From a virus: 24,037 nt of DNA. The notes under the pieces are model-generated. The model did no database searches, had not been told where the DNA came from, and saw only the letters and a program-made list of their open reading frames with translations. The position numbers were made by a program, and so were the translations under genes. The DNA is taken from UHGV virus genome UHGV-0103738; one strand, written 5' to 3'. Each line of letters opens with the position of its first letter. The first letter of the stretch is position 1. Shown here piece by piece: positions 3,092 through 22,585 of this stretch.

Positions 3092-3217
3092 ACTCCTGTA
3101 GAACCATCTGAACCTTCCCCCGATTTGGGGGAAGAAAATCTGATTCCTGAACCGGAAGAAGAATCCCAGACGGTTAAGGCGAAAGCCACAGCTAAAAAAC
3201 AGCGTAAAACTAAAGAA
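3092..3217 (+). other. Putative in-frame TGA read-through extension of the capsid protein (42 codons, TAA at 3218-3220)
   Basis: The frame stays open for 42 codons after the TGA, encoding TPVEPSEPSPDLGEENLIPEPEEESQTVKAKATAKKQRKTKE. It ends 5 nt before a terminator hairpin. A parallel arrangement follows the tail tube gene. Confidence 0.45.
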
Positions 3218-4901: not shown

Positions 4902-7900
4902 ATGCAGTCGATCCAATTTAAACGCACACAAACGGCTGGTAAAAAACCAACGCCGGAACAATTATCACAGGGCGAGATCGCCTTACAACTGGCGGACCAT
5001 GTGATTTACACCAAAGATAAAAATAATAACGTAGTCCAAATTAGTGTTTCTCCAGAAAAACACGCTGAACTGAATACGAAAGTAGACACCAACAAGGTCA
5101 ACACAGATAAAGTCATTTCAGCAAATAAAACCGAAGCCGCTAATAATCTGGCTACGGCTAAAGCTGAACTTAATCAGACTATCACTTCTACCCGTGATAC
5201 TCTCAATGCTTCAATCACTGCTGGCGATACCGCAGCCAACAAGCGAATTGATGCTTTGACTACCACAGTAGGTAACAATAAAACCGAAGCGGCTAACGCT
5301 CTGGCGGCTGCTAAGACTGAACTGAATCAGACTATTACTTCAACCCGCGATACTATCAACGCGACAATTAACAAGAACAAGACAGATATTAATGCGCGAG
5401 TTGATCAGACGAATACCAACGTTACCAACTTAACGAATACTGTCGCAGCAAATAAATCAGCAATAGAAAAGACGGTAGCGGATAATAAGAAAGATGCGGA
5501 CACGAAGATCACCAATCTTACTAGTACGGTCTCTGCGAATAAGACAGCCATTGAAAGAACTGTTGCAAATAACAAGGCCAGTGCCGATGCCGCAATTGCC
5601 GCAGCTAACCAGCGAATTGATTCTATTGAAGGTAGTGCCGATGCTGCTTACATCAAGAAGAATACCAATACTAAGCATGGTGGGTATCTGTTAAGCAAGA
5701 CAGCTAACTATTTGGAAGACCAGACAGCGAGAGATCTTAACTACTTTGGTGCTTTCCGTACCAATGGTCAAGATGGACTCATGGATCTAACTCTTAATGT
5801 TCCTCATTCTGCCGGTAAAGCGCACGGTCGCGGATTTACTTTCCGTTATGCGTCTGGTGGATCTCGTGTTGAAACCTATGGTTTTGATAGAGAAGGACAG
5901 AAGAACTTTAGCTATAAGATGTATCACGAAGGTGATAAGCCGACTCCTGGCGAGATTGGCGCATACACCAAAGCCGAAGTTGATAAGATGTTTGTTAAAA
6001 ACGTCGTTATGTCTGTTCCCAATTCTAGCGAAAACGTATCTGCATATTTCAAATTGGCAACCGCAACAATTCCACAAAACGGGCGTAGTGTGTTTTTCCG
6101 TATTCATGGTGGTAATGGTTACAACGTTACGGCATATGATCAGGTTGACGTAGTAGAAATTCTTCTGCGTAGTGGTAACGATAGACCTAAAGGTCTTAAC
6201 GTAATTGCATACCGTAGAAATACAAACAAAGATTTTGAGGTATTTGCTGTCAATACTTCCGGTGATAACTATGATATCTACGTGAAATATCAGCGTTATA
6301 CCGATAACGTTATTGTCGAATATGGGAAATCTGTTTATGTAAGTTTGACGGTTTATGATACGCCGGAAGCCACGTTAATTAAACCTTCCGTTGGTGTTAT
6401 CGGTGGTCGCAACGTAACTCTTTTTAATACTGAAAATAAACGTGGTGTGTTAAGTTTTGATGATAACACACAAAACAGCTATGACATTGTTCACTTGAGT
6501 AACGATAAAGGTACTGGACGGAAATATATTCGTAAATTCCGTAGCAACTATAACGAAATGGTTTGGCATGAAACCGTTCAGGGTGCTGTATATCGTCTTG
6601 CTACCGGTGCTACAGATTCTACAGAAGTTATTAGAATTGATTCTAATAGTGCAATACCGGGTAATTATAAAGGATATGTAATTACTGGTAAAATGGAATT
6701 GCACGGTAGTGGTAATGCGATGACTTTACATCGCCAGACTGGTCAAGCTGCATATATGGCGTGGTGGGATCGTCGTGATGGTAAAAACCAACGTAGTGGT
6801 TATATCGGTCATGCGGATGGTACTAGTGATGGTTTTGTGTGGCGTAATGATGTTGGTGCTAACTCATTTGATTTGGAAGGTAGTGGACAAGTAAATTTGA
6901 CTACAGGAAAAACAAAAATTGTATATACCAATGGTCAATATTATTCCGCTAACGCTGATGCATTCCGTATGATTTACGGTAAGTATGGTGCATTCTGGCG
7001 AAATGATGGTGGTAAAGTTTATCTGTTGTCTACTGCCGAAAATGATAGATTTGGTGGTTGGAACGGAAACCGACCATTCATTTACGATTTGACTAACGGT
7101 AAAGTTACTTTAGGTGGTGATGGTAACGAAGGCGCATTAGTTCTCGAAAGAGATAGCCGTGCTGCTCGATTTGCTGGCGATACATATATCGAGAAAGGGT
7201 TTTTAACCTTCTCTGCTGGGAGAAGCGGATCTCGTGATTATATTCGATTTAATCATTGGGGTGATAGTAATAATGCCCGTGATAACGTTTTGTACCTAGA
7301 AGATAGTCAAGGTAGACATTTTAGCACAGAGCGTGCGATGGGTACTGGTGCTCTTAAAGCAAACTTCTTAGGCGATCTTGAAGTTGGTGGTAAGTTTACT
7401 TGGGGTAAAAATACAGCTACATCCAGCTTTAATATTCGTGCTTGGGGTAACGATAGTCGTAAACAAGTATTAGAATGTGGTGATGAAAGTGGTTGGCATT
7501 GGTATACCCAACGTCCGGGCGGTCCGGGTACTACGGCAATTGAGTTTGCCATCAACGGTACTGTTAAGCCTCAAGCAATTCACACTGGCGGTAATATCAC
7601 GCTTAACGGTGCTGATATTGAATTTCGTCGCACTGGTAATAAGCATATCTGGTTTAGAGATCCAACTGGATTAGAACTAGGTTTGATGTATTCTGATGAT
7701 GCTGGTGTTATTCGCTTCCGTGGTCAGAAACAAGCCCAGACGTGGAAACTTGCGGATAAGATGATTCATCTTGAATCTGGTAGCGTCGGCGGATCTGATA
7801 AAGGTTTGATTCGTGGTAACGTTTCTGGTGGTAGCTGGTCTAGTTGGCGCGATCGTGCATCCGGCTTGCAAGTTGATTGCCCTCAATCAACCGATTCCGC

Positions 7901-8432
7901 TCATAACATCTGGAAAGCTACTCATTGGGGTAAATATCACATTGCAGCAATGGGTGTACACGTTCCTAGCGGTACTATCGGTAACGCTCTTGTTCGTCTG
8001 CATGTTAACGATACTAACTTTGACTTTAACGCTGCTGGTGACTTTACCGCAGGTCGTAACGGTAGCTTTAACGATGTTTACATTCGCTCTGACTCCCGTT
8101 TGAAGATTAACAAGGAAGAATTACAGGACGGTGCATTAGAGAAAGTAAACTCACTGAAAGTCTACACCTACGATAAAGTTAAATCTCTTTCCGATGACAC
8201 GGTGATTAAACGCGAAGTAGGTATTATTGCTCAGGATCTGGAAAAAGTATTGCCGGAAGCAGTAGGTATTCAATCCACCGAAGATCCAGAAAATCCAGAA
8301 GCAATCAAGACTATTTCTAACTCTGCTGTCAATGCTTTAATCATCAAGGCTATGCAGGAAATGGACGCCAAATATAAAGCACAGATCGAAGCATTACAGA
8401 AAGAAATTGCCGAACTGAAAGCAACTAAATAA
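4902..8432 (+). CDS. Side (L-shaped type) tail fibre with a C-terminal intramolecular chaperone / self-cleaving domain (1176 aa)
   Basis: SD GAGGTGA. N-terminal fibre-type motifs, a repeat-rich N/T/A shaft with 51-aa repeats, and a long Gly-rich beta region. The C-terminal ~114 aa begin RSDSRLKINKEE and end in a coiled coil, as in peptidase S74-type chaperone domains of phage fibres and endosialidases (Ser/Lys spacing S1063/K1068). Confidence 0.8.
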   Translation: MQSIQFKRTQTAGKKPTPEQLSQGEIALQLADHVIYTKDKNNNVVQISVSPEKHAELNTKVDTNKVNTDKVISANKTEAANNLATAKAELNQTITSTRDTLNASITAGDTAANKRIDALTTTVGNNKTEAANALAAAKTELNQTITSTRDTINATINKNKTDINARVDQTNTNVTNLTNTVAANKSAIEKTVADNKKDADTKITNLTSTVSANKTAIERTVANNKASADAAIAAANQRIDSIEGSADAAYIKKNTNTKHGGYLLSKTANYLEDQTARDLNYFGAFRTNGQDGLMDLTLNVPHSAGKAHGRGFTFRYASGGSRVETYGFDREGQKNFSYKMYHEGDKPTPGEIGAYTKAEVDKMFVKNVVMSVPNSSENVSAYFKLATATIPQNGRSVFFRIHGGNGYNVTAYDQVDVVEILLRSGNDRPKGLNVIAYRRNTNKDFEVFAVNTSGDNYDIYVKYQRYTDNVIVEYGKSVYVSLTVYDTPEATLIKPSVGVIGGRNVTLFNTENKRGVLSFDDNTQNSYDIVHLSNDKGTGRKYIRKFRSNYNEMVWHETVQGAVYRLATGATDSTEVIRIDSNSAIPGNYKGYVITGKMELHGSGNAMTLHRQTGQAAYMAWWDRRDGKNQRSGYIGHADGTSDGFVWRNDVGANSFDLEGSGQVNLTTGKTKIVYTNGQYYSANADAFRMIYGKYGAFWRNDGGKVYLLSTAENDRFGGWNGNRPFIYDLTNGKVTLGGDGNEGALVLERDSRAARFAGDTYIEKGFLTFSAGRSGSRDYIRFNHWGDSNNARDNVLYLEDSQGRHFSTERAMGTGALKANFLGDLEVGGKFTWGKNTATSSFNIRAWGNDSRKQVLECGDESGWHWYTQRPGGPGTTAIEFAINGTVKPQAIHTGGNITLNGADIEFRRTGNKHIWFRDPTGLELGLMYSDDAGVIRFRGQKQAQTWKLADKMIHLESGSVGGSDKGLIRGNVSGGSWSSWRDRASGLQVDCPQSTDSAHNIWKATHWGKYHIAAMGVHVPSGTIGNALVRLHVNDTNFDFNAAGDFTAGRNGSFNDVYIRSDSRLKINKEELQDGALEKVNSLKVYTYDKVKSLSDDTVIKREVGIIAQDLEKVLPEAVGIQSTEDPENPEAIKTISNSAVNALIIKAMQEMDAKYKAQIEALQKEIAELKATK
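5124..5429 (+). repeat. Two tandem 153-nt (51-codon) repeat units inside the fibre shaft
   Basis: AATAAAACCGAAGC(C/G)GCTAA...CTGAA(C/T)T(T/G)AATCAGACTAT(C/T)ACTTC recurs at 5124 and 5277. Protein units are NKTEAANNLATAKAELNQTITSTRDT... and NKTEAANALAAAKTELNQTITSTRDT... Confidence 0.7.
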
Positions 8433-8488: not shown

Positions 8489-8962
8489 ATGTCTCAGCAA
8501 TTCAAAGATATTTTTACTGGTGGTCTGGTAAGTCTGTTCTATCACGCCGATACCACTAACACCGACCTTGCCGATGAAGCATACGAAGAAATTAAAGAGT
8601 GTGCTGGTTTTCCTGAAACTGGTATCGAGCGCGGTACTGTAGAAGTTAAATCCTTCTCTTCTCAGTATAACCGTAAACTGGTAGGTAAACTGAACGTTCC
8701 TGATCTGACTCTGACCGTTAACTACATTCCTGGTGATGCGGTACATGAGAAGCTCATAAAGGCTGCCGAAGACGGTACGCGTATTCAAATCAAAGTTGAA
8801 TACTATGTTGACGCCGGAAAACAGACTGGTATTCGCACTGCTTTCAACGGCTTTATTTCTAAAGTTGCTATGAACGGTGGCGATGAAGAAGTGGTAACGA
8901 AAGAGTTTACCTTTGCTGTTGATGGTGCTCCGCTGAAACAGCAAATCTTCACTGCCGGATGA
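8489..8962 (+). CDS. Major tail tube protein (157 aa)
   Basis: SD AAGGGGTAA. Strongly biased highly-expressed codon usage. Lies upstream of the chaperone and tape-measure genes and is followed by a strong terminator. Stop is TGA at 8960-8962. Confidence 0.7.
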   Translation: MSQQFKDIFTGGLVSLFYHADTTNTDLADEAYEEIKECAGFPETGIERGTVEVKSFSSQYNRKLVGKLNVPDLTLTVNYIPGDAVHEKLIKAAEDGTRIQIKVEYYVDAGKQTGIRTAFNGFISKVAMNGGDEEVVTKEFTFAVDGAPLKQQIFTAG

Positions 8963-9136: not shown

Positions 9137-9643
9137 ATGGCAAATGTCGTTAAAGTTCCTGGCTGGATCGGGTCATCTGCTGTATCGGTGACGGGTAAGC
9201 GATGGATGAAAGAAGCATTAACAGCTTTAAAAGTTCCGGCTCCGCGTAATATGTCGGCAATGGCTGGTCGTGGTATGGATACGGTTGTAGCTACTGCATC
9301 GTGGTCTACTTCATTGGGTAATAACTGGGGTGTAACTGCTTCAAACTATCCTGTTTCCGGTATGCAAAGCAAAGGATCTATGGAGAACCCCGAAAACGTG
9401 GGCGTAGGGCGTCTGGTTGGCGTTATCGTTGGTCAATTCAATGGCGGTACTCCTACTATGGCTGTATATCTCCAGAACGGTAGAGCGGGGAATATAACCG
9501 TTAATTTGGGTGGTGCTGCTGTCACTGTTCCTTATAACAGTATGCAAAGTGGTTTTCATTACTATTGGTTAAGCAATCCTCCGGCTGCTTTCCTTACCAA
9601 CATTAAGAAGACTGGCACTAAGCAGACTTTGAAAATCTCTTAA
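9137..9643 (+). CDS. Hypothetical tail-associated protein (168 aa, Gly/Ser/Thr/Asn-rich)
   Basis: ORF with upstream GGAG, located between the tube gene and the chaperone genes. Composition suggests a beta-rich structural protein. No specific motif recognised. Confidence 0.45.
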   Translation: MANVVKVPGWIGSSAVSVTGKRWMKEALTALKVPAPRNMSAMAGRGMDTVVATASWSTSLGNNWGVTASNYPVSGMQSKGSMENPENVGVGRLVGVIVGQFNGGTPTMAVYLQNGRAGNITVNLGGAAVTVPYNSMQSGFHYYWLSNPPAAFLTNIKKTGTKQTLKIS

Positions 9644-10377: not shown

Positions 10378-12810
10378 ATGACAAAACATATAGTAACAAT
10401 AGAAGGGGATAATAAAGGTCTAAGGAGAAGTACCAGTGAAGCCGCCGACCTTCTCGATAGTTTGTCTGAAAAGGCAAGTGGTATTGATTTTGGTGGTGGC
10501 TTGTCTGGTTTGACTGGATCTCTTCGTGGGATCGCTGGCTCTGCTGGTTTGGCTGCTGGTGGTATCGGCTTAGTTGCGACCGCAGTGGTTGCAGCCGCTA
10601 AAGCTGGTGCGGAATACGTTAAACAGTATTCAGAAGTATCTAAGGCGACCGGACTCTCGATTGAATCCCTTCAAAGACTAGAAAAGGAATTTTCTGGTAC
10701 TGGCCTAACAGTTGAAAAATTCGGTGATATCAACAAAGACACCTTAGATAAGATGGGTGATGCATGGGCTAACGGTGGTGGTATTGCTGATGACTTAGAA
10801 TCGGTTGGTCTTAAGTTAGAAAACTATGCTCACTTCATGACAGATCCGCAAGGTGGTATGAAAGCGGCGATCCAAGTGTTCTATGACATGAAGAAAGCCG
10901 GAAAATCAATGGCTGAAATCAAGTTCATGATGGAATCTTTAGCCAGTGATTCAAGCCATATGACCAGCCAGCTTGAGAAATATAATAGTGCTCAAGAGGC
11001 GATGATCGCTATTCAGAATCAATCTGTTAACGTCACCGAAGAAAACGCTAAAAAATATGATAAATTTTCTCAGAATATTAATAAGCTGGAAAATAACCTG
11101 AAAGGCGCAGCCATGACCATTACTGGTCCTTTGGTTGATAGCTTAAACTGGTTATTTGAATGGTTTAATATTGATTGGGAAAAGAGTTCTCTATTCAGGG
11201 CATTAGATCGACTGAATAAAGAAGGCAAGACCGCAACTGGTGGTATTCTTAACGCCAACCATAAAGACGCTCAAAAGATTATTGACAAGTACAATAAAGA
11301 AAAGCGTTGGAATAATCTAGCAGATTGGGAAAAGGCCGCGATCCGTGGTGCTGGTGTCGATCCTCGTACTGCTGGCTTTGATGTTGAAGGATTTAAGAAA
11401 CGTTTTGGTGGGTCTTATAAAACTTCAAGTGGTGCTCTGATTGTCGTAGATGCAGGTGAACATCTGACACGCAAGGCAGATCCTAACACTGATTTGACTA
11501 TACCAAATAAACCAGTAAGACCAGAATCATTGGGTAAGTCTGGCAACGAGAAGAAAGCCGAGGAAGAAGCCAAAAAGAAAGCGGAAGAGGCAGCTAAAAA
11601 GGCTAAGGAAGCCGCAGAAAAAGCACAGAAAGCACGCGAGGATGCAATCAAGCGACTGAATGCACTTGATGTTAAATTGCAAGGGCAAGTTGCAGCGTCT
11701 ATCACTTCTCAAAATAGCCAGTTGCAAAACAGCTTAAAAGATGTGAACGACGCGTTAGCTCTGGGCTTAATCTCTCAGGAAGACGCAGCCGCGAAACGCC
11801 AGGCGCTAATCGATCAGAATACTGAAAACGTTTATAAAATGATGTTGGGTGCTGATCCGATTGATGCTCTGAATGCTTTAACACAATTGCAACAAATCAG
11901 GGACAACGAGCTAGAAAGCCATAAACGGTTACTTGATGGTAAAGCTATCTCCTACGAAGAATATATGCGTCGTGTGAACGATACCGAGCAAAACTATTCT
12001 CAGATTGAAAATTCTTTACAGGGAATGGATGGTTATAAAACCAATCAATTAACTAGTGGTTATGATTATCAAGACTCAAATAATCCGTTTGCTAAATTTA
12101 ATGCAATCGATAAAGAGAAATCGGATGCTGAACAAGATTATAAGACCGATAAACTCAAGATTGACGGTATTAATGATCCGGCTAAACGGATGGAAGCATT
12201 AGAAAAACTCAATGAAAACCATCAAAAACGGATGGCTGCAATTGAAAAGAAATATGCTGATGCTCGTCAGTCAATAGCTGATGATATGTACGGCGGTTTT
12301 GCTGCTGCAATGACTCTCTTCGGGCAGGAAAACACAAAAGCTATGCAGATGGCTTTCAATGCTCATAAAGCATTCTCAATTGGACAAGCGACGGTGAACA
12401 TGTGGACGGCTGCTACCGATGCATGGAACGATCCGACCAACGTAACCACAGGTCAAAAGATCGCTGCTGCTGCATTGGCTGTTTCTCAGAACATGGGGAA
12501 CATTGCAAACATCAAGTCTACTAATGTTAGCGGTATGGCTCATGATGGTATCGATAACATCCCGCGTGAGGGTACATGGTTGCTTGATAAGGGTGAACGA
12601 GTAGTTGATCAGCGTACTAACGGTGATTTGAAAGACTTCTTATCTGCTCAAAAATCAGGCGGTGGTAACTCTCAGCCGATTGAAGTTAATGCGCCTTTGA
12701 ACATTAACGGCAACGTTAATAGCTCAGACAAGATGGTTATGGATGCTATCAAACGTCACGCTAAGTTAGTTGCTCAGGCGGTAGAAGACGCACAGCGTCG
12801 TAAGATGTAA
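10378..12810 (+). CDS. Tail tape measure protein (810 aa)
   Basis: Position after the chaperone pair. N-terminal Gly-rich hydrophobic segment, long coiled-coil and Lys/Glu/Ala-rich stretches, C-terminal Gly-rich region. Confidence 0.85.
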   Translation: MTKHIVTIEGDNKGLRRSTSEAADLLDSLSEKASGIDFGGGLSGLTGSLRGIAGSAGLAAGGIGLVATAVVAAAKAGAEYVKQYSEVSKATGLSIESLQRLEKEFSGTGLTVEKFGDINKDTLDKMGDAWANGGGIADDLESVGLKLENYAHFMTDPQGGMKAAIQVFYDMKKAGKSMAEIKFMMESLASDSSHMTSQLEKYNSAQEAMIAIQNQSVNVTEENAKKYDKFSQNINKLENNLKGAAMTITGPLVDSLNWLFEWFNIDWEKSSLFRALDRLNKEGKTATGGILNANHKDAQKIIDKYNKEKRWNNLADWEKAAIRGAGVDPRTAGFDVEGFKKRFGGSYKTSSGALIVVDAGEHLTRKADPNTDLTIPNKPVRPESLGKSGNEKKAEEEAKKKAEEAAKKAKEAAEKAQKAREDAIKRLNALDVKLQGQVAASITSQNSQLQNSLKDVNDALALGLISQEDAAAKRQALIDQNTENVYKMMLGADPIDALNALTQLQQIRDNELESHKRLLDGKAISYEEYMRRVNDTEQNYSQIENSLQGMDGYKTNQLTSGYDYQDSNNPFAKFNAIDKEKSDAEQDYKTDKLKIDGINDPAKRMEALEKLNENHQKRMAAIEKKYADARQSIADDMYGGFAAAMTLFGQENTKAMQMAFNAHKAFSIGQATVNMWTAATDAWNDPTNVTTGQKIAAAALAVSQNMGNIANIKSTNVSGMAHDGIDNIPREGTWLLDKGERVVDQRTNGDLKDFLSAQKSGGGNSQPIEVNAPLNINGNVNSSDKMVMDAIKRHAKLVAQAVEDAQRRKM

Positions 12811-14120: not shown

Positions 14121-14540
14121 ATGCTAAAAACTAGGCTTATCACCGATTACATCAATTCTTTAATAGGTCAGGAGTTCGTTCAAGGCGAGAATGATTGCAA
14201 TCTCATTGCATGTAAGATCATCGATATTCTCGCTGGTACTGACCTATATAATTCTCTTTATAAAAAATATTCAACTAAAGAAGAAGGCTTGAAAATCTGC
14301 AAAGAATTAAGCGGATATTCAAACATCCTTCAACCAATTAAGAAACATTTCAAATTAGTCACTGATGATTTACAGGACGGCGACTTACTGGTCACAGCCC
14401 ACAAATTAGGAAACCGTAATTATTATTCCGTAGTTCCTCATTATTCCGGTTATGGCCTCGTTGAAGAAGATGGTATCTGGATGACCATTCCTGTTTCAGA
14501 CATTGACTATGAACAAGTTTATAGATTCGGGGGTGAATAA
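14121..14540 (+). CDS. Tail assembly protein, gpK-like with possible NlpC/P60-type Cys motif (139 aa)
   Basis: GGAGG at 14108-14112 sits 8 nt before ATG 14121. ENDCNLIAC resembles the catalytic Cys motif of NlpC/P60 domains. Located immediately upstream of the J-like gene, with a TAATG overlap at 14538-14542. Confidence 0.5.
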   Translation: MLKTRLITDYINSLIGQEFVQGENDCNLIACKIIDILAGTDLYNSLYKKYSTKEEGLKICKELSGYSNILQPIKKHFKLVTDDLQDGDLLVTAHKLGNRNYYSVVPHYSGYGLVEEDGIWMTIPVSDIDYEQVYRFGGE

Positions 14541-17500
14541 TGGGATTTGAAATATTGGTAGGCGCGGTTATTGCTGGTGCGTCTGCTGGGATGGCTGCTG
14601 CTGCAACATTTTCTGTTATGACCGCAGTCGCTATCGGTATGGCTGCTGGTGCAATGACCTTGATCGCTTCCACTGTAGGCGCACCAAAAACACCGAAAGT
14701 ACAAAGCCCAGATAATGCGGTGACACTAGGAACATCAAACGATCCGAAGACAGTATTACCCGTTCTTTTCGGTACTACCCGCACGGGTGCAATCTGCGTT
14801 TACAAAGCAATTTCTAAGCAAGAAAACAATAAGTTAGTGCAAATCTTCGCAATTGCAGAGGGTGAAATCGACCATTACAAAGCACTATTCATCGATAACA
14901 AAAATGTTCTTGTTGGTAAGAACATGACGATCCGTGATGGTGTACTGGACAAAGGCAACATTAAAGAAGAATACCGGAAAGTTTTAGAGGTTGAGTTCCG
15001 CACTGGTAAGAATCCTAACACCGCTTTGTCACTGGCAAAACGTCACTTAGGGTCAGACTGGAACGACAACTACAAAGGCAATGGTATTGCGACCATGTGT
15101 ATTGTGTTGCGTCGTGATGACAAATCTCTTGCTGCTGGTGTTGATATTCTCCAACCAAATAGCCAGGTAGCGGTAGACGTTTGCGGGTTAAAGATTCGTA
15201 ACCTTGAAACCAATGCTATTGAGGCTAGCACTAACGGCGTGGACCAGATTTTCCATTATCTGACAAATACAAAATATGGTCTTAGTGTACCAATTGAAAA
15301 CATCAACGTTGATTCATTCCTGAAAGTACGTAAGCAAGTACGCCAGATGGATTTGCATTCAAACGGTGCATGTGATCCGAACGCCAGCTTTAAAGAGAAC
15401 TTGACTAGCCTTATGCAGACTTTCGGCGGGGTGATGTTCGAATCCTTTGGACGTATTACGCTGAAACTGGATGCTCCTGATATTGTTAAGCATACCTTCA
15501 ATGAAGACAATATCATGATGGGTAAGGTATCACTGAAAACAGGTGGCACTAACGGTTATTTCAATACCATTAACGCGATGTATCAAGAACCATCAATCGA
15601 CTATTCAGAGCAAATGCTACGTTATCCGGCTGATGCTGAAAACGATGCTACTATTCGTCAAGATGGTCGAATTATCGCTAAAGATATTGAATATCGTTTT
15701 GTTAAGTCTAAAGCCCAGATTGATAAACTTGCGAGTATTGAGCGAAATAAATCTCGTATCACTCAGGTTATCAGCTTTATGACTACTGACGCATTCACTG
15801 CCGAAGTTTGGGACGTTATCAGCGTAACCTATGATGAATTGAAGCTGAATAATTCCTTATGGCGTATTACTGCAATTGATCGCTCGATTGATTCTGGTAT
15901 TGCTGGGATGATGACTATCACCGCTACAGAATATAATTCTCAGGTTTATACTGACCTGAACTATGCGGCTAACCCAGATAACCGACCAAGTGGTTTACCG
16001 GATTCAATGACAGTACAGAAGCCTACTAATTTCAGAATTAAGGCAACTGGCGAGACGATTTACGGTAAAAACGTTACTTTGACATGGGATGCACCAGAAG
16101 ATTTTAACCGCTACGGCTTCCAGATTGATTACCGTGTAAGCGGATCACCTAACTGGATTAAGTTGGGACAGACTTCACAGCAAATTTTCAGTGTCAATGC
16201 ACTGGCAAAAGATCGTTCCTACGATTACCGAGTTTGTGCTTTCGGTATCATCGCGAGATCCGATTGGGTAGAACTGATTAACCAGAATCCTACTGTTACC
16301 TATGAATTGCCGACTCCGGTTATTCGAATCAAAAATCAGGGTAGCACGCCAGGAACTTTCGAAGGTAATGATCTGATTATCGAATGGGAAAATCAGCAAC
16401 AATTAGATGTTGAGATCAACGGTGAAACTAACAAGTTTAGTGACCTGTTTGAAGCATACATTATCAAGGTGACTAACAAGGCTGGTAAGTCTATTCAGTA
16501 CCGTACCCGCGATCCTGAATCATGGACTTATACGCTTGATATGAACCAGTTTAACGGCCTTTCGCGTCAACTTACGGTAGAAGTATCAGCTAAGGGCTAT
16601 AACAACTCAGAGAGCGCCCCAGCGCGTTTAGTGGCTATCAACCCACAACATAAGCCAATGAAAGGTTTTAGTGCGCGTGGTGGCTTTAATACTGCGTTTG
16701 TTAGCTGGGCGGATGACGTAGAACATGACTATGCAGGGTCAATCATCCAGTATGCAACCGACAACACTTTCTCAGATGCAAGGGCAGTAAGTACGAATAG
16801 TGTTAGCCATACTTCCTTTGATATTGCTGACGGTGATTATTATATCCGTGGTGCTCACTACGATATTTTCGGTATGGATGATGCTGTTTGGTCTGAACCG
16901 TATTTCATGCAAATGAAGTCTACGATTAGTTGGGACGATCAGGACAAAGAAGCACTGGAAGACCTGATCGGTTTACAAGATCGCTTAGATGAAACTATCG
17001 CGGATGCTATTAAGCAAGCTGGCGCTAATGCCGATGCTAAAATTGATGCAATGCATAAGCAAATCACTACCGAGACGGGTAAAACTGTTCAAGCCTCAGC
17101 CGATACCTTAAAGAGTCTGATTGCTTCTGGTGATAAGGCAAGTTCAACTAAGATTGATCAGGTTAAAGCTGAACTGAAAGGCGATATCACCAAAGAAGTT
17201 AGCGCCTCCGCTACAACCCTGAAACAAGCAATTGCAACCAGTGAGGCAGCAAGCGCAAGTAAGATTGATCAAGTTCGGGTAGAAATGGATGGCAAGATTG
17301 CTGGTGTGAATCAGGAAGCAGATGTAAAAATCGATGCTTTGAAAGGAACCATTAACAGCAAATACAATCTGGCGGTTAATGCAGATGGTCGCGTGGCTGG
17401 TATTCATATGAGCGCAACCAATGATCCGGCAGAACCGACAAGAATCATCTTTACGGCTGATAAAATCGCGGTAGCTCCACAGAATGGATCGGGGGTATGT

Positions 17501-18316
17501 CCGTTTGGTATCGAAGGTAACAAGGTTTATCTCGATAATGCGATGATTCGTAATGCTGCAATTGGTACAGCCCAGATTAATGATGCGGCGATTACTACTG
17601 CCAAGATCGGCAATGCCGCAATTAACAGCGCGAAGATTCAGGACGGGGCAATCACTAACGCCAAGATCGTAAACGGTGCAATTGATAACGCCAAAATTGG
17701 TAACTATATCCAGTCTTCCAACTGGAACGGATCAACCGGATGGCATATCAACAAGAACGGGTCCGCTACGTTCATGAACGCTACCGTTAAAGGTAATATC
17801 ACGGCTGATTCTGGTACTCTGAACAACGTCACGATTAACTCTAGCTGTGTTATTAAGGGTATGCTTGAAGCTACTCAGGTTAAGGGTGATTTCGTTAAGG
17901 TGATTGGTCGTAAGTTCCCACACCGTGATGTTAACGTTGATAATGGTTATGGCGGCTATCCGCAAGGTACAGTAACCGTTCGCGTTGAAGATGATCACAA
18001 GTTCGATCGTCAAATCGTTATTCCGGCGATTAGTTTTGGTGGATTGCGAGCGCGTGAAGGGTCGAACAATAATACCTATTACGACACCTGTCGCCTGATT
18101 GTTCGTAAGAATGGGTCAGAGTTGTATAATAGGGCGTATGGCGGTAATACTGGTCTTTACTCAGGTGTTATTGATATGCCAGCGGGTAAAGGTGCTGTGA
18201 CCTTGACCTTTGAAGTGCAATCAAGCGCAATCAACAACTGGACGCCTAGCACATGGATCAGTGATTTAACTGTAATGGTAACTAAAAAAGCCACTACGGG
18301 TATTACTGTTTCTTAA
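14540..18316 (+). CDS. Central tail fibre / tip attachment protein, lambda gpJ-like, with an N-terminal gpI-like hydrophobic domain (1258 aa)
   Basis: C-terminal ~150 aa resemble the remembered lambda J C-terminus (TLNNVTINSSC..., VEDDHKFDRQIVIP, VIDMPAGKGAVTLTF, DLTVMVTKK). Fibronectin III-like segment around 16000-16300. N-terminal Ala/Gly-rich hydrophobic region followed by APKTPKVQ...VLPVLFG, resembling the lambda gpI C-terminus. Confidence 0.85.
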   Translation: MGFEILVGAVIAGASAGMAAAATFSVMTAVAIGMAAGAMTLIASTVGAPKTPKVQSPDNAVTLGTSNDPKTVLPVLFGTTRTGAICVYKAISKQENNKLVQIFAIAEGEIDHYKALFIDNKNVLVGKNMTIRDGVLDKGNIKEEYRKVLEVEFRTGKNPNTALSLAKRHLGSDWNDNYKGNGIATMCIVLRRDDKSLAAGVDILQPNSQVAVDVCGLKIRNLETNAIEASTNGVDQIFHYLTNTKYGLSVPIENINVDSFLKVRKQVRQMDLHSNGACDPNASFKENLTSLMQTFGGVMFESFGRITLKLDAPDIVKHTFNEDNIMMGKVSLKTGGTNGYFNTINAMYQEPSIDYSEQMLRYPADAENDATIRQDGRIIAKDIEYRFVKSKAQIDKLASIERNKSRITQVISFMTTDAFTAEVWDVISVTYDELKLNNSLWRITAIDRSIDSGIAGMMTITATEYNSQVYTDLNYAANPDNRPSGLPDSMTVQKPTNFRIKATGETIYGKNVTLTWDAPEDFNRYGFQIDYRVSGSPNWIKLGQTSQQIFSVNALAKDRSYDYRVCAFGIIARSDWVELINQNPTVTYELPTPVIRIKNQGSTPGTFEGNDLIIEWENQQQLDVEINGETNKFSDLFEAYIIKVTNKAGKSIQYRTRDPESWTYTLDMNQFNGLSRQLTVEVSAKGYNNSESAPARLVAINPQHKPMKGFSARGGFNTAFVSWADDVEHDYAGSIIQYATDNTFSDARAVSTNSVSHTSFDIADGDYYIRGAHYDIFGMDDAVWSEPYFMQMKSTISWDDQDKEALEDLIGLQDRLDETIADAIKQAGANADAKIDAMHKQITTETGKTVQASADTLKSLIASGDKASSTKIDQVKAELKGDITKEVSASATTLKQAIATSEAASASKIDQVRVEMDGKIAGVNQEADVKIDALKGTINSKYNLAVNADGRVAGIHMSATNDPAEPTRIIFTADKIAVAPQNGSGVCPFGIEGNKVYLDNAMIRNAAIGTAQINDAAITTAKIGNAAINSAKIQDGAITNAKIVNGAIDNAKIGNYIQSSNWNGSTGWHINKNGSATFMNATVKGNITADSGTLNNVTINSSCVIKGMLEATQVKGDFVKVIGRKFPHRDVNVDNGYGGYPQGTVTVRVEDDHKFDRQIVIPAISFGGLRAREGSNNNTYYDTCRLIVRKNGSELYNRAYGGNTGLYSGVIDMPAGKGAVTLTFEVQSSAINNWTPSTWISDLTVMVTKKATTGITVS

Positions 18317-18420: not shown

Positions 18421-18699
18421 ATGACTGAAATTATATATGGCGGTATCGGTGTTATCGCCTTAATTTGCGGTGGTCTTTGGAGACTTCACCGAAATCAATT
18501 AGCAACTGAAAATAGATTGTCGAAATTGGAATCCAGCGACGCATTGTTAAACCAGAAGTTTGAGACGATGCAGAATAACCATACTCAGATTGCTGAACGT
18601 GTTTACCAAATGGAACAAACACTACACGGTATAGAGAAGAAAGTGGTTGCGATGGACGCCAAATTTGACCAAGTTCTCGACATACTCAAACAAAAATAA
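18421..18699 (+). CDS. Membrane-anchored coiled-coil protein (92 aa; holin/lysis-regulator or exclusion candidate)
   Basis: SD-like CGGGGGCGTA before the ATG. One N-terminal transmembrane segment (IIYGGIGVIALICGGLW) followed by RLHR and a coiled-coil tail. Confidence 0.5.
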   Translation: MTEIIYGGIGVIALICGGLWRLHRNQLATENRLSKLESSDALLNQKFETMQNNHTQIAERVYQMEQTLHGIEKKVVAMDAKFDQVLDILKQK

Positions 18700-18717
18700 T
18701 AATAAAGGGGTGAATAT

Positions 18718-18888
18718 ATGAAGAATAAACTTAAGAAATATTTTGGTTATCTCTTGATTATCGCCCTCACTTATAACGTAGCAATTAGACCTCTGCTTAC
18801 GTCCTTTGGGCTTGAACTCCCGGCTATGGCCGTGGATGAACAATTGCTAAGGACACTGGCGGGGGTCTTTTCGTTATTAGGGGGCTAA
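18718..18888 (+). CDS. Small membrane protein (56 aa), not in the supplied ORF track
   Basis: SD AAAGGGGTGAA 8 nt before ATG 18718. Sequence MKNKLKKYFGYLLIIALTYNVAIRPLL... has a basic N-terminus and one transmembrane helix. The stop sits 1 nt before the next gene's ATG. Confidence 0.35.
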   Translation: MKNKLKKYFGYLLIIALTYNVAIRPLLTSFGLELPAMAVDEQLLRTLAGVFSLLGG

Positions 18889-18889
18889 C

Positions 18890-19573
18890 ATGGCAACCAG
18901 TACCAATAAACGAAACGCTCTAAGGACTAAGAAAGCGTTACGGCAATGGTCTGAAAAGGCAACCGATACATTCGAAAGGGCGATAGGGGAAGGGGCGATC
19001 TTTGCTGCTCGTGCACTACAGAAGAAGATTAACAAGAATGTTGATAGACCTACTCGCTGGACTCAGCAAGCTGTAGGTAATACCAACTACAAGAACCGAT
19101 CAGGGACCAGACACCAAATCTTCATCAAGGGCGCAAGGGATAAGGACAAGAAGATCGGCAGTCAGGATGACTATCTGAAACACTATTTCGATGGCGGCAA
19201 AATCAATAAGCTAGTGCCAATCGCCAACGGTAAGGTCTTAGACTCCCACGGGAACATTAAGGCCATCAAAGGCGGTAAGATGATGCGTAACATCGAAAAC
19301 GGCAACTTCATCAAGGTAGAGAACAAGGAAGGGACTTTTATCATGAAGAAGTACAAGCCTAAGAAATCCCGAACCAAACGCGCTAAGAATGGATCGGCGG
19401 TGGCAAAACGTCGCTTAGAGAAACGCATCCAGAAACAGAGTAAGCGAATTGTTGCCGTTAAGTCGGATAAAATTTCTACTCGTTATTCGACGCTAGGATC
19501 GTGGGAAAGCAACGAGGAAATGATGCTTAAGAACATTAATAAGCACATTAAATCGCGCATGAGATACGTTTAA
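18890..19573 (+). CDS. Highly basic Lys/Arg-rich protein (227 aa), function unknown
   Basis: ORF tightly coupled to the upstream small gene. Very high K/R content throughout, with no transmembrane segment. Confidence 0.5.
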   Translation: MATSTNKRNALRTKKALRQWSEKATDTFERAIGEGAIFAARALQKKINKNVDRPTRWTQQAVGNTNYKNRSGTRHQIFIKGARDKDKKIGSQDDYLKHYFDGGKINKLVPIANGKVLDSHGNIKAIKGGKMMRNIENGNFIKVENKEGTFIMKKYKPKKSRTKRAKNGSAVAKRRLEKRIQKQSKRIVAVKSDKISTRYSTLGSWESNEEMMLKNINKHIKSRMRYV

Positions 19574-19611
19574 TCCATAAATACCCTCATAGAATCTTAT
19601 GGGGGTATAAC

Positions 19612-19959
19612 ATGGCTAAAAATATTTTCACTGAATTTCCTACTTATCCGGTCGATCAGCTTTCCGGTATTTTTATTAATGGCATTAGCCCAGAATCAAT
19701 GACCTATGATTTTGAGGCGAAGAGAGTTAAACATAAACAATATAAAGAATGTATCCGCGATCATGAAAAAGGGACCGTGTTTTGTGTCGCTACATTGGCT
19801 AAACGTCCTAAATATCGTTTTCGTGTAGGGCAAGAAGTTGATGTGGTTAATCCTTATAGCTTTAACTGTCTGGGCGATGCACGCGCGGTGTGTGTAGGTA
19901 CTGCTCCTTATTACATCAAGGGTATGCGCTTTATTGGTTATATCTTCGAAATGATCTAA
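19612..19959 (+). CDS. Hypothetical protein (115 aa, Cys-containing)
   Basis: SD TGGGGGTATAA before ATG 19612. No recognised motif. Confidence 0.5.
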   Translation: MAKNIFTEFPTYPVDQLSGIFINGISPESMTYDFEAKRVKHKQYKECIRDHEKGTVFCVATLAKRPKYRFRVGQEVDVVNPYSFNCLGDARAVCVGTAPYYIKGMRFIGYIFEMI

Positions 19960-19968
19960 GGGGGTAAT

Positions 19969-20322
19969 ATGTTAAGCAAACATTTTTCTCGCAAGGAATT
20001 TAAATGTAAATGTGGAAAATGTGATTATGATACAATCGACGCTGAATTACTGGTAATTCTTGAGGATGTACGAGAGCACTTCGGGAAGCCAGTAATTATT
20101 AACAGTGGGAACCGTTGTCCGACTCATAATAAGAATGTTGGCGGCGCAACCAATAGCTATCATGTTCGAGGCCGTGCGGCTGACATTGTTATCAAGGGTG
20201 TCTCGCCTGATATTGTTCATGCTTATCTTGATGGGAAATATCCTACTCAATACGGCTTAGGAAAATATAAAACCTTTACGCATATTGATTCCAGATCAAA
20301 AAAATCACGGTGGAATGGATAA
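19969..20322 (+). CDS. Peptidase M15-family zinc peptidase, probable endolysin (117 aa)
   Basis: SD AAGGGGGTAA. Motifs SYHVRGRAADI and FTHID match the His/Asp zinc-binding signature of M15-type cell-wall peptidases. No signal peptide. Confidence 0.65.
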   Translation: MLSKHFSRKEFKCKCGKCDYDTIDAELLVILEDVREHFGKPVIINSGNRCPTHNKNVGGATNSYHVRGRAADIVIKGVSPDIVHAYLDGKYPTQYGLGKYKTFTHIDSRSKKSRWNG

Positions 20323-20594: not shown

Positions 20595-20852
20595 CTATGA
20601 TTTATTTTCTTGTTCTATGAAAATCTTTCTCACCTCATCAGAATAAATGTCTAGTGATTCCTCATAACATTTTCTGTATTCATCGTAATTACTGGTGGTC
20701 TTTTGACATAGCAATTTCAATGTCTTATGTGCTCCATCAATGAAAGCATCTTCTCTATAGGTTAGCGGTCTACGCATTTCTTGGTCTACGGTTGCCAATG
20801 CCAAGCAAGAATTCATAGATAAAATTAAACCTAAAATCTTAATCATCTTCAT
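20595..20852 (-). CDS. Small secreted protein (85 aa; start at ATG 20852, track gives a TTG start at 20867)
   Basis: N-terminal signal-peptide-like sequence MKMIKILGLILSMNSCLALA followed by a hydrophilic domain with two Cys. The start region overlaps the 3' end of the recombinase gene. Confidence 0.5.
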   Translation of the reverse strand: MKMIKILGLILSMNSCLALATVDQEMRRPLTYREDAFIDGAHKTLKLLCQKTTSNYDEYRKCYEESLDIYSDEVRKIFIEQENKS

Positions 20853-20856
20853 TAGC

Positions 20857-22536
20857 TTAAATTCCAAATTCTTGTAATGGACCTGGTATTTCTTCTTCTG
20901 GTTTCCAGTTCTTATCTGTCAGCATGTCTAAACATGGATGCAGAACAAGCCCGTTACTCTCCAGAATCTGCCTATCATTGATAGTCTTCAAATCAACGAA
21001 GATCCGGCCTTTCCTCGGTCCTCTTGAATTTTCTATTACAACTCTCTGGGTCTTGCCATCGATGTATTCCAGTACAAACAAGTTTTTGTACTTGTCAATC
21101 CTGCTACACCCGATCCGTTTTAGAGCTTGCTTAATCTTAAACCGGACCTTAATGCGATCCTCGTTGTAAACATCTTCTAAATCAAATTCTGCGAGCTTCT
21201 CCCAGCCTTGAGAGTCAACAGAATACATTTCCTCTTCTGCCATCTTAAGTTGATTGTAGAGTGTTTCACGCTCGCTATTGAGGGTAGTAATCTGATCGGC
21301 TAGCTCCTTCGTTGCTCCTGTCATAGCAGAAAGGGTAATCAGGTTATCAATCTTGCGTGATATTTCATCAATCTGTACTTTCAAAGCCGGAACCGGATTA
21401 GCCTTATCTTCAGCAATCCAGATTTTATCAGCCAGCAATTGCAATACAGCTTTCTCTAATTGGTCGCCGCGAAAACTCCAGTTTGTATGCACACATTCAA
21501 TACGACTAGAGCGCATTGCATCGCATGAATAACGATATTGGTTAGGCCGTCTGTTTGTTCCTTTCACCTTAACCATAGCGGAACCGCAATGTTCACATTT
21601 CAATAGACCAACACCACTAAGCAAGGGAATAGGTTTAGCTTCTTCTTTGTCTCCAAAGTTACATGCTCTAACACCAATGCTTTTCTTAAGGTGATAAAAC
21701 TCAGCGTCATCTAGCACACGAGGATAATAATCCTTTAACTCATACTTAACGCCATCTACAGAGATTTCCTTGATACCAATCAAAGCGCGGGTATGGAACA
21801 ACCTTTCAATCATTGCCCGTGACCAGTTTGAATGCCTCTTGTGACTTGCGGCTGGTGGTGGTGTGTATGTCGCGTTAAGGTGATCCAGTATCTCGGCGGT
21901 TGACCGTCCATTCCTGCGTAATTCCACAACTTCCTGAACAATAGGGAAGAAGACCGGATGAGGAAGCACATAACCAGATGTGGTATCAGTCCACCACATA
22001 TTCTTTCCAATTTCCTCGATTGCAACAGCCGGATTTTGTGGATTTTCTTGATGAGCTTTAATCTTAATCAGTGCGCTTGAGTTAGTACGATTGCGCTTAG
22101 TCTGGCTTTCCTCATTACCACGGATGAATAAAAGGATGGAGAACATCAGGTCCATCGGGTTAGCGGTAACAGTATCAAGCGAGTAGATCTTGTTATCCAT
22201 GCCAGTAACAATGGTTATCCCCCTACGGATGATTGAAAGGAATAACTCCTGTGCACTGACAATATCGGCACGGGATAAACGGTCCAAGTTTTCGATGAAT
22301 AGCCAGCTACCAACAGGAACGGATCTACCTATTGCATCAAGGAAACGAGATAGCGCCCCTGTTTTGGAGTTAGCACCCTTAAACGCAGATACACCCAGAT
22401 CCTGATAATCATTTACCAGTTCAAGGTCATACTTTACCGCAATCTCTCTAGCCATCCTGATTTGTCGTTCATAACTCGAACCATCATTCTGACGCATAGA
22501 CGAGAAGCGAATATACGAATACAGTTTAGTTTTCAT
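20857..22536 (-). CDS. Large serine recombinase (integrase/resolvase family, ~559 aa from ATG 22536)
   Basis: N-terminal catalytic motif YIRFSSMRQ (Arg/Ser/Gln spacing of serine recombinases) and ENLDRLSR. Central recombinase region. Cys cluster CEHCGSAMV...YRYSCDAM...ECVH (zinc-ribbon-like), then a coiled coil. Track start is a TTG at 22551; the first ATG is at 22536. Confidence 0.85.
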   Translation of the reverse strand: MKTKLYSYIRFSSMRQNDGSSYERQIRMAREIAVKYDLELVNDYQDLGVSAFKGANSKTGALSRFLDAIGRSVPVGSWLFIENLDRLSRADIVSAQELFLSIIRRGITIVTGMDNKIYSLDTVTANPMDLMFSILLFIRGNEESQTKRNRTNSSALIKIKAHQENPQNPAVAIEEIGKNMWWTDTTSGYVLPHPVFFPIVQEVVELRRNGRSTAEILDHLNATYTPPPAASHKRHSNWSRAMIERLFHTRALIGIKEISVDGVKYELKDYYPRVLDDAEFYHLKKSIGVRACNFGDKEEAKPIPLLSGVGLLKCEHCGSAMVKVKGTNRRPNQYRYSCDAMRSSRIECVHTNWSFRGDQLEKAVLQLLADKIWIAEDKANPVPALKVQIDEISRKIDNLITLSAMTGATKELADQITTLNSERETLYNQLKMAEEEMYSVDSQGWEKLAEFDLEDVYNEDRIKVRFKIKQALKRIGCSRIDKYKNLFVLEYIDGKTQRVVIENSRGPRKGRIFVDLKTINDRQILESNGLVLHPCLDMLTDKNWKPEEEIPGPLQEFGI

Positions 22537-22545
22537 ACCATTTCC

Positions 22546-22585
22546 AAACAAAAACGCCCCTACCGCGTATTATAACGATAGGGGC
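22546..22585 (-). terminator. Hairpin with T-run immediately upstream of the recombinase start (– strand)
   Basis: 10-bp stem whose one imperfect position is a G-U pair only in the – strand transcript, followed on the – strand by GTTTTTGTTT. The loop contains TTATAAT. Confidence 0.5.

Follow-up and report, generated by a model that had tools for sequence, protein, structure and literature searches.

A lambda gpJ-type receptor-binding domain on a tail-tip protein of a different lineage in a temperate Escherichia coli siphophage

The window analysed here corresponds to the whole stretch of 24,037 nucleotides of the virus genome UHGV-0103738, and contains a long open reading frame coding for a J-like tail-tip protein. 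This protein is built up from a succession of modules, all located on the + strand, which were delineated as follows:

14540..18316, + strand: J-like central tail fibre or tail-tip protein, a complete ORF of 1258 aa plus stop (ORF list, translation)
14540..14860, + strand: N-terminal module like the C-terminal part of lambda gpI, with two hydrophobic helices (aa ~4-45) followed by a plug/strand segment (aa 48-107)
14861..15979, + strand: hub (baseplate) domains, not lambda-like, with approximate boundaries (sub-threshold Pfam, phrog, BLASTP, DCP80)
16007..16924, + strand: fibronectin-III-like repeat region, with approximate boundaries (weak fn3 matches)
16937..17359, + strand: alpha-helical shaft, alanine/lysine-rich and coiled-coil-like (Apolipoprotein low-complexity helical match, aa 844-937)
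17330..17623, + strand: central straight fibre, a beta-prism (PF09327 Phage_Tail_Tip at aa 931-1028, Pfam E 1.7e-19; aligned with lambda J 872-931)
17552..17704, + strand: five 10-residue repeats of consensus xxAAIxxAKI (facing a gap of ~60 aa on the lambda side in BLASTP)
17738..17896, + strand: last fibre layers or neck preceding the receptor-binding domain (aligned to lambda 946-1000 and to A8)
17897..18313, + strand: Ig-like receptor-binding domain, PF12421 Ig_GpJ_C (Pfam, AF2, Foldseek)
17912..17965, + strand: variable loop 1, aa 1125-1142, KFPHRDVNVDNGYGGYPQ (lambda 1012 hot spot; alignment)
18038..18085, + strand: variable loop 2, aa 1167-1182 (lambda 1048/49 hot spot; indels in the alignment)
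18134..18157, + strand: variable loop 3, aa 1199-1206 (lambda 1077/78 hot spot; alignment)
18224..18256, + strand: variable loop 4, aa 1229-1239, SAINNWTPSTW (lambda 1107 hot spot; alignment)

An identical 1258-aa tail-tip protein has been recorded from E. coli (HFJ7001307.1), its 90% cluster comprising 3211 members, and 55 out of the 5426 complete E. coli genomes carry the gene. One lysogen, E. coli CE0007a (NZ_CP119011), has a 97.4% identical copy whose receptor-binding domain is the same. A megablast search of 50,697 phage records returned no match to the gene; its lineage is without any close deposited phage. The host element is a temperate E. coli siphophage residing as a low-GC, uncharacterised prophage with hicB as insertion site; a literature search for a hicB-inserted prophage with a serine recombinase gave nothing relevant. 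GC amounts to 45%, as compared to 55.5% in lambda, and a search for a recent import of the domain from a lambdoid phage revealed no difference in GC or GC3 between the domain and the remaining gene.

At its N-terminal end, the tail-tip protein resembles a distinct lambda protein, since aa 48-107 share 35% identity with lambda gpI 156-223 (BLASTP, pairwise E 4e-7) and the module weakly matches residues 118-214 of 8iyk_I (phmmer). What the helices and plug of gpI do in lambda has been described (PMC11101478), and a comparable role may be proposed for this N-terminal module. The hub region which follows gives a PF13550 Phage-tail_3 match below threshold (Pfam, aa 285-447), and phrog_25032 spans aa 20-785. 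The fibronectin-III-like region rests on a weak Pfam fn3 match at aa 508-570 and several weak PDB FN3 matches at aa 502-582; a Vibrio phage homologue of the protein carries the annotation 'fibronectin type III'. Residues ~812-1046 match fibre-shaft segments of J-like proteins, those of T1 and F2-pyocin among them (PDB phmmer), and the alpha-helical shaft of lambda gpJ occupies the same position (PMC11101478). The 10-residue repeats, which are absent from lambda J and present in the DCP80 homologue, lengthen the fibre, and the neck, with its motif NVTIN..C..G invariant in 40 homologues, ends at a conserved GD(F/I)VK junction. The PF12421 domain comes after PF09327 and the neck and reaches the last residue, in such a way that the order of hub, FN3, helical shaft, PF09327 prism and receptor-binding domain is that of lambda gpJ, whose corresponding domain likewise forms the tip of a PF09327 beta-prism fibre.

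The C-terminal domain is truly homologous to the receptor-binding domain of lambda gpJ. PF12421 is matched at aa 1124-1258 (nt 17909-18313) with an E-value of 7.6e-34 and a score of 117.1 bits, for a gathering score of 26.2 bits, and the match covers model positions 3-135 of 135. Among PDB sequences (phmmer), aa 1067-1257 match lambda gpJ 946-1131 (8iyk_J, E 3.2e-34) and aa 1067-1258 match 'A8 gpJ 713' (9wca_J, E 1.4e-53), while residues 949-1257 align with lambda J 872-1131 in BLASTP (E 3e-35). When the last 194 aa are aligned with MAFFT, 76/187 positions (40.6%) are identical to lambda, over gpJ 944-1131, and 93/184 (50.5%) to A8. The homologous stretch begins at about nt 17738 (aa 1067), with a weaker fibre-shaft similarity from about nt 17384 (aa 949), and thus encloses the segment 17800-18316 (aa 1088-1258), for which the preliminary description had proposed a lambda-J-like C-terminus: the resemblance is real, lies far beyond chance in Pfam, phmmer and BLASTP, and holds upon formal alignment to lambda J. 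Motifs common to both domains comprise NVTI, GD.VK, DD..FDRQ, NG and DMPAG.G.

The predicted fold is in agreement with this homology. The AF2 model of the domain, a single-chain model of medium confidence, is all-beta with a mean pLDDT of 76.8, and values of 46-69 in some neck and loop segments. The best Foldseek matches are 9wca, 9wcb, 8xck and 8xcj (E 5e-17 to 3e-16, TM 0.64-0.66), and the next ones, at 2e-4 or weaker, lie about 12 orders of magnitude below these solved gpJ domains, which have been described as Ig-like (PMC11101478). The lambda domain belongs to the same Pfam family, and the model matches both solved pairs of structures: 8XCK and 8XCJ correspond to the closed form and the open, LamB-bound form of the lambda domain (residues ~1000-1132), 9WCA to the closed form of A8, and 9WCB to the open form of A8 with the OmpC of EDL933 (PDB 9wcb title).

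The resemblance to lambda J is confined to the last ~310 aa, and the rest of the protein stems from another lineage, the remaining ~940 residues being not lambda-like, with no significant BLASTP alignment outside aa 949-1257. The lambda-type domain sits on a tail-tip body unrelated to lambda J. The only deposited phage relatives of the body are Escherichia phage DCP80 (PQ671644) and Vibrio siphophages of ~100 kb. The tail-tip protein of DCP80 shares 40% identity over aa 29-1119, a span that takes in the neck as well as the 10-residue repeats, but its C-terminal domain is unrelated after the GDIV junction and devoid of PF12421. Conversely, the closest domains from deposited phages occur in the J proteins of lambdoid E. 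coli prophages and Stx phages (VT1-Sakai, PPompW, Stx2a phages, vB_EcoS-640R1), with 53-56% identity over 139 aa and none at 60%, and these J proteins possess lambda-like bodies, unlike the body described here. The same holds for A8, which has a lambda-type J body (P0221 being a natural full-length example). All of the 243 phage records with this domain are lambdoid-type enterobacterial phages, and every other locus with it found in GTDB species representatives has a lambda-type J body, no body of the window type having been found among these representatives.

From aa ~1070 or ~1123 on, different alleles occur in sister prophages, with a domain framework 78-87% identical and loops only 26-35% identical. 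In the closest sister allele, P0168, 26/139 positions differ within the domain versus 80/1119 elsewhere (Fisher p = 3e-5); enrichment of these substitutions is limited to the entire domain and the final 258 aa, with no concentration in the loops inside the domain (10/53 vs 16/86, p = 1). The receptor-binding domain is exchanged between alleles as well as between backbones.

Divergence within the domain is concentrated in the four variable loops, which average 27% identity, versus 66% in the remaining domain (40 sequences), and all indels relative to lambda, A8 and the sister alleles fall within them. Among homologues, mean identity amounts to 31% in loop 1 (with 31% gaps, 39 homologues), 19% in loop 2, 16% in loop 3 and 41% in loop 4. 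Three short loops alternate with the variable four, and the invariant motifs DD..F.RQ, NG and MP.G.G occur in or beside them. The variable loops coincide with lambda positions 1012, 1048/49, 1077/78 and 1107, which experiments and phylogeny have both singled out as host-range hot spots (PMC6646904). They presumably correspond to the published lambda loops L1-L4; because the residue numbers of L1-L4 are given neither in the structure paper (PMC11101478) nor in its supplements, this correspondence is based on predicted strands and on the published indel hot spots. As deduced from strand order rather than from coordinates, the four loops would share one face of the domain.

Since every characterised member of the family binds an outer-membrane protein, a receptor of this kind is the best assumption for the present domain, and a well-supported one. 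We estimate at about 0.8 the probability that the receptor is an outer-membrane protein, most likely a trimeric porin engaged via a lambda-like mechanism, and probably not LamB. In lambda, four bottom loops make the contact with LamB (PMC11101478). A8, a J variant occurring naturally in E. coli prophages and obtained by selection on a lamB deletion, uses OmpC, and so does a second natural E. coli variant, 1A2 (PMC11338833). The distal neck and the Ig-like receptor-binding domain are those of a central tail fibre that is presumably trimeric, and are specified by nt 17738-18313. By analogy, the four far-end loops of each of the three copies would touch the extracellular loops of an outer-membrane beta-barrel, and binding would spread the bottom of the domain trimer. 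This change could be relayed upward via the beta-prism fibre and the helical shaft, until the hub opens and frees the plug, which the protein apparently carries as a fusion at its own N-terminus, and DNA ejection would then start.

The preliminary description had also suggested an outer-membrane-protein receptor by way of the LamB-binding domain of lambda; the general suggestion agrees with the binding of LamB or OmpC by members of the family, but any LamB implication finds no support. Compared to lambda, the loops differ in both sequence and length, with 22% identity and all 9 gap columns of the alignment. They represent a distinct allele, which is why LamB is probably not the receptor. The residues that set receptor use in lambda (S1012, V1077, D1107 and neighbours) are not conserved: S1012 is replaced by a gap followed by a 5-residue insertion in loop 1, V1077 by T and D1107 by N, S1012 and D1107 being the two residues critical in the receptor shift of lambda. 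Moreover, four mutations suffice for lambda to gain OmpF use (PMC6646904), so that a domain 40% identical to that of lambda says little on the choice of the receptor. Thus, in spite of the clear homology to the LamB-binding domain, of the presence of LamB in the host E. coli and of its status as a common siphophage receptor, binding to maltoporin in the manner of lambda looks unlikely, the more so as the closest characterised relative uses OmpC. OmpC is indeed the best single guess, because this nearest relative, A8, binds it, and specific binding to OmpC would simply be a sharper form of the preferred reading. A8 is also the best solved match, with a framework 60% identical, and is available in complex with OmpC; its loop 4 (SGANNWTPTTS) is near-identical to loop 4 of the window, which is unlike that of lambda, and SNN is common to loop 2. 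Specific binding to OmpC nevertheless remains a tentative guess, because the loops are only 33% identical to those of A8 overall and loop 1 is 8 residues longer; besides, A8 has unrelated sequences in loops 1 and 3, and NNW.P in loop 4 is not a signature of A8, since most J domains of E. coli prophages have it as their consensus. The enlarged loop 1, which contains NVDNGYGG, might also recognise an outer-membrane protein new for lambda-type J tips, i.e., neither LamB, OmpC nor OmpF, but this is a speculative prospect.

Two further readings dispense with direct binding to an outer-membrane protein. The domain could serve as a docking platform for a separate receptor binder, in the style of the T1-like Drexlerviridae, or bind a non-protein ligand such as the LPS core. 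Drexlerviridae receptor binders are encoded just downstream of J and the J tip co-varies with them, and four small genes of unassigned function do occur between J and the endolysin in the window. Both solved complexes of the domain family, however, show direct porin contact, the lambda tip has little or no homology to the GpJ tips of Drexlerviridae, and the downstream ORFs (18421-19959), which match no receptor-binding or tail family, look like lysis or basic proteins. The 92-aa protein encoded there does not co-vary with the domain allele, WP_021515509 being associated with both alleles. Such a docking role, or a non-protein ligand, is very improbable. It is likewise very improbable that the prophage is decaying and the J-like gene a functionless remnant. 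In some E. coli genomes the gene is interrupted by IS1 or truncated by IS903B, but the ORF of the window is intact over 1258 codons within an uninterrupted head-tail-lysis-integrase module, identical copies of the protein occur on several independent metagenome and genome contigs, and in 54 complete genomes at least 80% of the gene is covered by a match.

The annotation is correct but fairly ordinary. It provides a firm assignment of the host-recognition tip in an uncharacterised temperate phage lineage present in ~1% of complete E. coli genomes, together with the caution that 'lambda-J-like' should not be taken as 'LamB-binding'. The occurrence of a lambda-type receptor-binding domain on a non-lambdoid body shows that the modularity of the J specificity region reaches beyond the lambdoid phages. 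In this respect, retargeting of lambda-derived DNA-delivery particles to OmpC has already been achieved with the natural alleles A8 and 1A2, and the allele of the window, like the two sister alleles of its prophage family, represents a candidate part for retargeting. Should recognition of a new outer-membrane protein prove true, the J specificity region would be a cassette exchangeable between unrelated siphophage tail lineages, and the allele a ready-made part for retargeting lambda-based delivery particles.

The ORFs located 3' of J encode proteins of 92 aa (a membrane helix and a coiled coil), 56 aa (a membrane helix), 227 aa (very basic) and 115 aa. A Drexlerviridae-type arrangement, with a receptor binder encoded downstream of J, was considered and rejected since no candidate gene was available. 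The small ORFs neighbouring J and the integrase were also inspected for a receptor-blocking or superinfection-exclusion gene, as a hint to the receptor, and showed no family matches. The side fibre (4902-8432) had been thought to bind a surface polysaccharide, a proposal which finds no support: over 912 aa it shares 76% identity with gp37 of the T-even phage RB49, assigned to OmpA by a 2026 preprint, and an accompanying gene encodes a protein with a Gp38_N adhesin domain, which gave no match in a PDB sequence search.

As a separate observation, the J protein of Gifsy-1, with a C-terminus only 18% identical to that of lambda, has been reported to bind several unrelated outer-membrane proteins, so that J tips are not restricted to porins.

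The receptor-binding domain at the C-terminus of the tail-tip protein belongs to a known family, in which it is a new allele, and is borne by an unusual, non-lambdoid carrier; its interest, which is modest, lies mainly in the study or engineering of phage host range. The window spans that arm of a temperate siphophage which carries the structural, lysis and integration genes, organized as follows:

1-1032, portal
1079-3091, capsid protein
3989-4822 (+), tail-tube gene, longer paralogue
4902-8432 (+), long side-fibre gene
8489-8962 (+), tail-tube gene, shorter paralogue
9137-9643 (+), gene of the Gp38_N-domain protein
10378-12810, tape measure
between the tape measure and the tail-tip gene, distal tail protein, DUF2163 hub protein and DUF6950 protein
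14540-18316 (+), 1258-residue tail-tip protein, with the lambda-J-like part at the 3' end
after the tail-tip gene, small lysis-region genes
19969-20322, M15 endolysin
20857-22551 (-), large serine recombinase

The annotation as a lambda-J-type receptor-binding domain is secure. The Pfam family PF12421 (Tip attachment protein J, C-terminal receptor binding domain) is matched over its full length at aa 1124-1258 (117 bits, E 7.6e-34, for a cut-off of 26.2 bits), and PF09327 (tail tip fibre) at aa 931-1028. A direct BLASTP comparison of the tail-tip protein with lambda J gave an E-value of 3e-35. In the PDB sequence search, aa 1067-1257 align to lambda gpJ 946-1131 (E 3.2e-34), and aa 1067-1258 align much better still (E 1.4e-53) to the A8 gpJ 713 construct, derived from a natural E. 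coli prophage J variant. Formal alignment of the last 194 residues with MAFFT yields 76/187 identical positions (40.6%) with lambda and 93/184 (50.5%) with A8. With 39 homologues as input, AlphaFold2 gave an all-beta model of aa 1067-1258 (mean pLDDT 76.8), and its four leading Foldseek matches in the PDB (E 5e-17 to 3e-16, TM 0.64-0.66) are all gpJ structures, namely A8 closed (9wca), A8 open with OmpC of E. coli EDL933 (9wcb), lambda closed (8xck) and lambda bound to LamB (8xcj); matches beyond these are at 2e-4 or weaker. The lambda-J-like C-terminus that the preliminary description had placed at 17800-18316 (aa 1088-1258) is thus borne out, and lies inside a homologous stretch starting at about nt 17738.

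The tail-tip protein also follows lambda gpJ in the order of its parts, i.e., hub, FN3 region (weak matches), alanine/lysine-rich helical shaft, PF09327 β-prism and receptor-binding domain. The β-prism is lengthened by five tandem 10-residue repeats (xxAAIxxAKI; 17552-17704, +), which are absent from lambda J but occur in the homologue from Escherichia phage DCP80. The N-terminal ~107 residues (14540-14860, +) resemble the C-terminal part of lambda gpI and consist of two hydrophobic helices followed by a segment that shares 35% identity with gpI 156-223 (pairwise E 4e-7). In lambda, this part of gpI comprises the plug and the strands threading through the hub (PMC11101478), and the same module seems to be fused here to the J-like protein. 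On the basis of the shared order of parts and the gpI-like N-terminus, the lambda mechanism can be proposed: binding of the loops to a receptor trimer would spread a putative trimer of the domain, the change would travel up the prism and shaft, and the hub would then open and release the plug.

The AlphaFold2 model shows an alternation of strands and loops. The positions that do not vary across 40 homologues include the motifs DD..F.RQ, NG and MP.G.G, which lie within or next to three short loops, as well as the neck motif NVTIN..C..G. Four variable loops occur between the short ones and correspond in the alignment to the following lambda J residues:

aa 1125-1142, variable loop 1 (lambda 1012)
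aa 1167-1182, variable loop 2 (lambda 1048/49)
aa 1199-1206, variable loop 3 (lambda 1077/78)
aa 1229-1239, variable loop 4 (lambda 1107)

The mean identity of the homologues to the window is 27% in these loops versus 66% in the rest of the domain, and all gap columns relative to lambda, A8 and the sister alleles fall within them. The same lambda positions were described by Maddamsetti et al. as the indel-rich sites marking J host-range diversification, residues 1012 and 1107 being needed for the laboratory shift to OmpF (PMC6646904). Cryo-EM of lambda revealed four bottom loops, L1-L4, described without residue numbers, which insert into LamB (PMC11101478); strand order and the hot spots suggest that the variable loops are their counterparts.

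With respect to the receptor, an outer-membrane protein, as initially put forward, is well supported by analogy, since the characterized members of the family bind outer-membrane porins directly, and a trimeric porin would be the likeliest class. The lambda domain binds LamB (PMC11101478), whereas A8 (a naturally occurring J C-terminus from an E. coli prophage, grafted onto lambda), which was selected on a strain deleted for lamB, requires OmpC (PMC11338833), with which its domain has also been solved in complex. A8 is a nearer relative of the window domain than lambda is, by framework (60% versus 51% identity) and by loops (33% versus 22%) alike, and loop 4 has almost the A8 sequence (SAINNWTPSTW versus SGANNWTPTTS). 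However, loops 1 and 3 show no relation to their A8 counterparts, loop 1 being longer by 8 residues, and the NNW.P of loop 4 is not diagnostic because it is the consensus in most E. coli prophage J tips. OmpC is accordingly the best single guess, with about one chance in three. LamB, which the likeness to lambda might imply, is not supported and should be considered unlikely, given the low loop identity to lambda, the closeness of A8 and the loss of key lambda residues (S1012 replaced by a gap, D1107 by N, V1077 by T).

Only the last ~310 residues of the tail-tip protein are lambda-J-like, and BLASTP detected no significant similarity to lambda J in the remainder. The deposited phage relatives of this body are limited to the DCP80 protein and to proteins from Vibrio siphophages of ~100 kb, at about 23% identity. 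The DCP80 protein is 40% identical over aa 29-1119 and shares the repeats and the neck, but carries an unrelated C-terminal domain directly after the GDIV junction. Conversely, the phage records with a window-like domain (identity ≤56%) are all lambdoid-type E. coli, Stx or Salmonella phages (243/243). The 19 loci found in GTDB species representatives belong to Escherichia, Shigella or Citrobacter, except for a partial match in Enterobacillus tribolii (query residues 1-70) and three metagenome bins with implausible labels. A lambda-type J body lies upstream in 18 of the 19, the last locus holding no upstream sequence, and a window-type body in none. Across 1.84 billion representative proteins, all of which were scanned, only 111 clusters have the domain, so that the family is small and narrow.

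The domain is a mobile module on a foreign body, and the tip is swapped within the window's own prophage family as well. Some genomes match the gene only to nt 3210 or 3369 and continue into a different allele (HRQQNWPDG...), 78-87% identical to the window in the framework versus 26-35% in the loops. P0168, the commonest allele, differs at 26/139 domain positions versus 80/1119 elsewhere (p = 3e-5), with 66 of its 106 differences in the last 258 residues; within the domain, its substitutions show no loop enrichment (p = 1). The GC (44.8%) and GC3 (39.6%) of the domain are the same as elsewhere in the gene and are far from lambda (55.5% and 62%), and thus give no sign of a recent import.

DCP80 (PQ671644; 141 kb) is labelled Straboviridae/Gaprivervirus and bears T4-type genes (motA, endonuclease VII) beside its capsid and tail-tip relatives; the record may be chimeric or mislabelled. 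It is the only deposited phage with a relative of the capsid (43%) alongside one of the tail-tip protein (40%). The next capsid relatives, phiHAP-1 and phages of Rhodobacter, Roseobacter and related hosts, share 28-30% identity.

The side-fibre protein had been suggested to bind a surface polysaccharide, a view which finds no support; its receptor is at least as likely to be a protein as a sugar. The C-terminal end of the fibre is a Peptidase_S74 intramolecular chaperone. Over 912 residues, the fibre shares 76% identity with gp37 of RB49 (Krischvirus), a virulent T-even phage, including a stretch of 120 residues (aa 562-681) at 100%, which points to a fibre having been exchanged recently between a prophage and a lytic myovirus. 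RB49, in which no gp38 is annotated, was assigned to OmpA in a screen of 255 E. coli phages (2026 preprint). Two genes downstream of the fibre, a separate 168-residue protein with a Gp38_N adhesin domain lacks the long glycine-rich C-terminal part usual in T2-type adhesins. Among phages, its best matches are Stx2 phage proteins (P13374, phi191) called tail fibre adhesin, at 45% identity. The side-fibre protein is alone in its 90%-identity cluster, that of the J protein having 3211 members. The tail-tube paralogues flanking the fibre gene (277 and 157 aa) are 30% identical (E 8e-17), the longer with a C-terminal extension of ~120 residues, and one of them may form a ring carrying the side fibres.

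The host is E. coli in spite of the low GC of the element (42%), as indicated by an identical tail-tip protein recorded from E. coli as well as from metagenome contigs, by the ydcR-ydcS-ydcT genes adjoining the prophage on these contigs, and by the insertion of the prophage, in a complete genome, into the antitoxin gene hicB next to ydcR, which leaves hicB truncated (locus L004, 29538-29654). Of 5426 complete E. coli genomes, 55 carry the tail-tip gene; at the nucleotide level, the gene matches none of 50,697 deposited phage genomes. In some lysogens, it is interrupted by IS1 (NZ_CP024131 and NZ_CP024134, matches H3 and H8), and in one genome (locus L008, 5025-5972) it is cut to the last 315 codons with IS903B directly upstream, so that part of the population consists of decaying prophages. 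Between the lysis genes and the recombinase, a small ORF (20595-20867, -) encodes 90 residues, or 85 as called on a metagenome contig; no family match was found for its product, which displays a signal-peptide-like hydrophobic N-terminal stretch (MKMIKILGLILSMNSCLALATV) and could be a secreted or lipoprotein moron, e.g., an exclusion factor.
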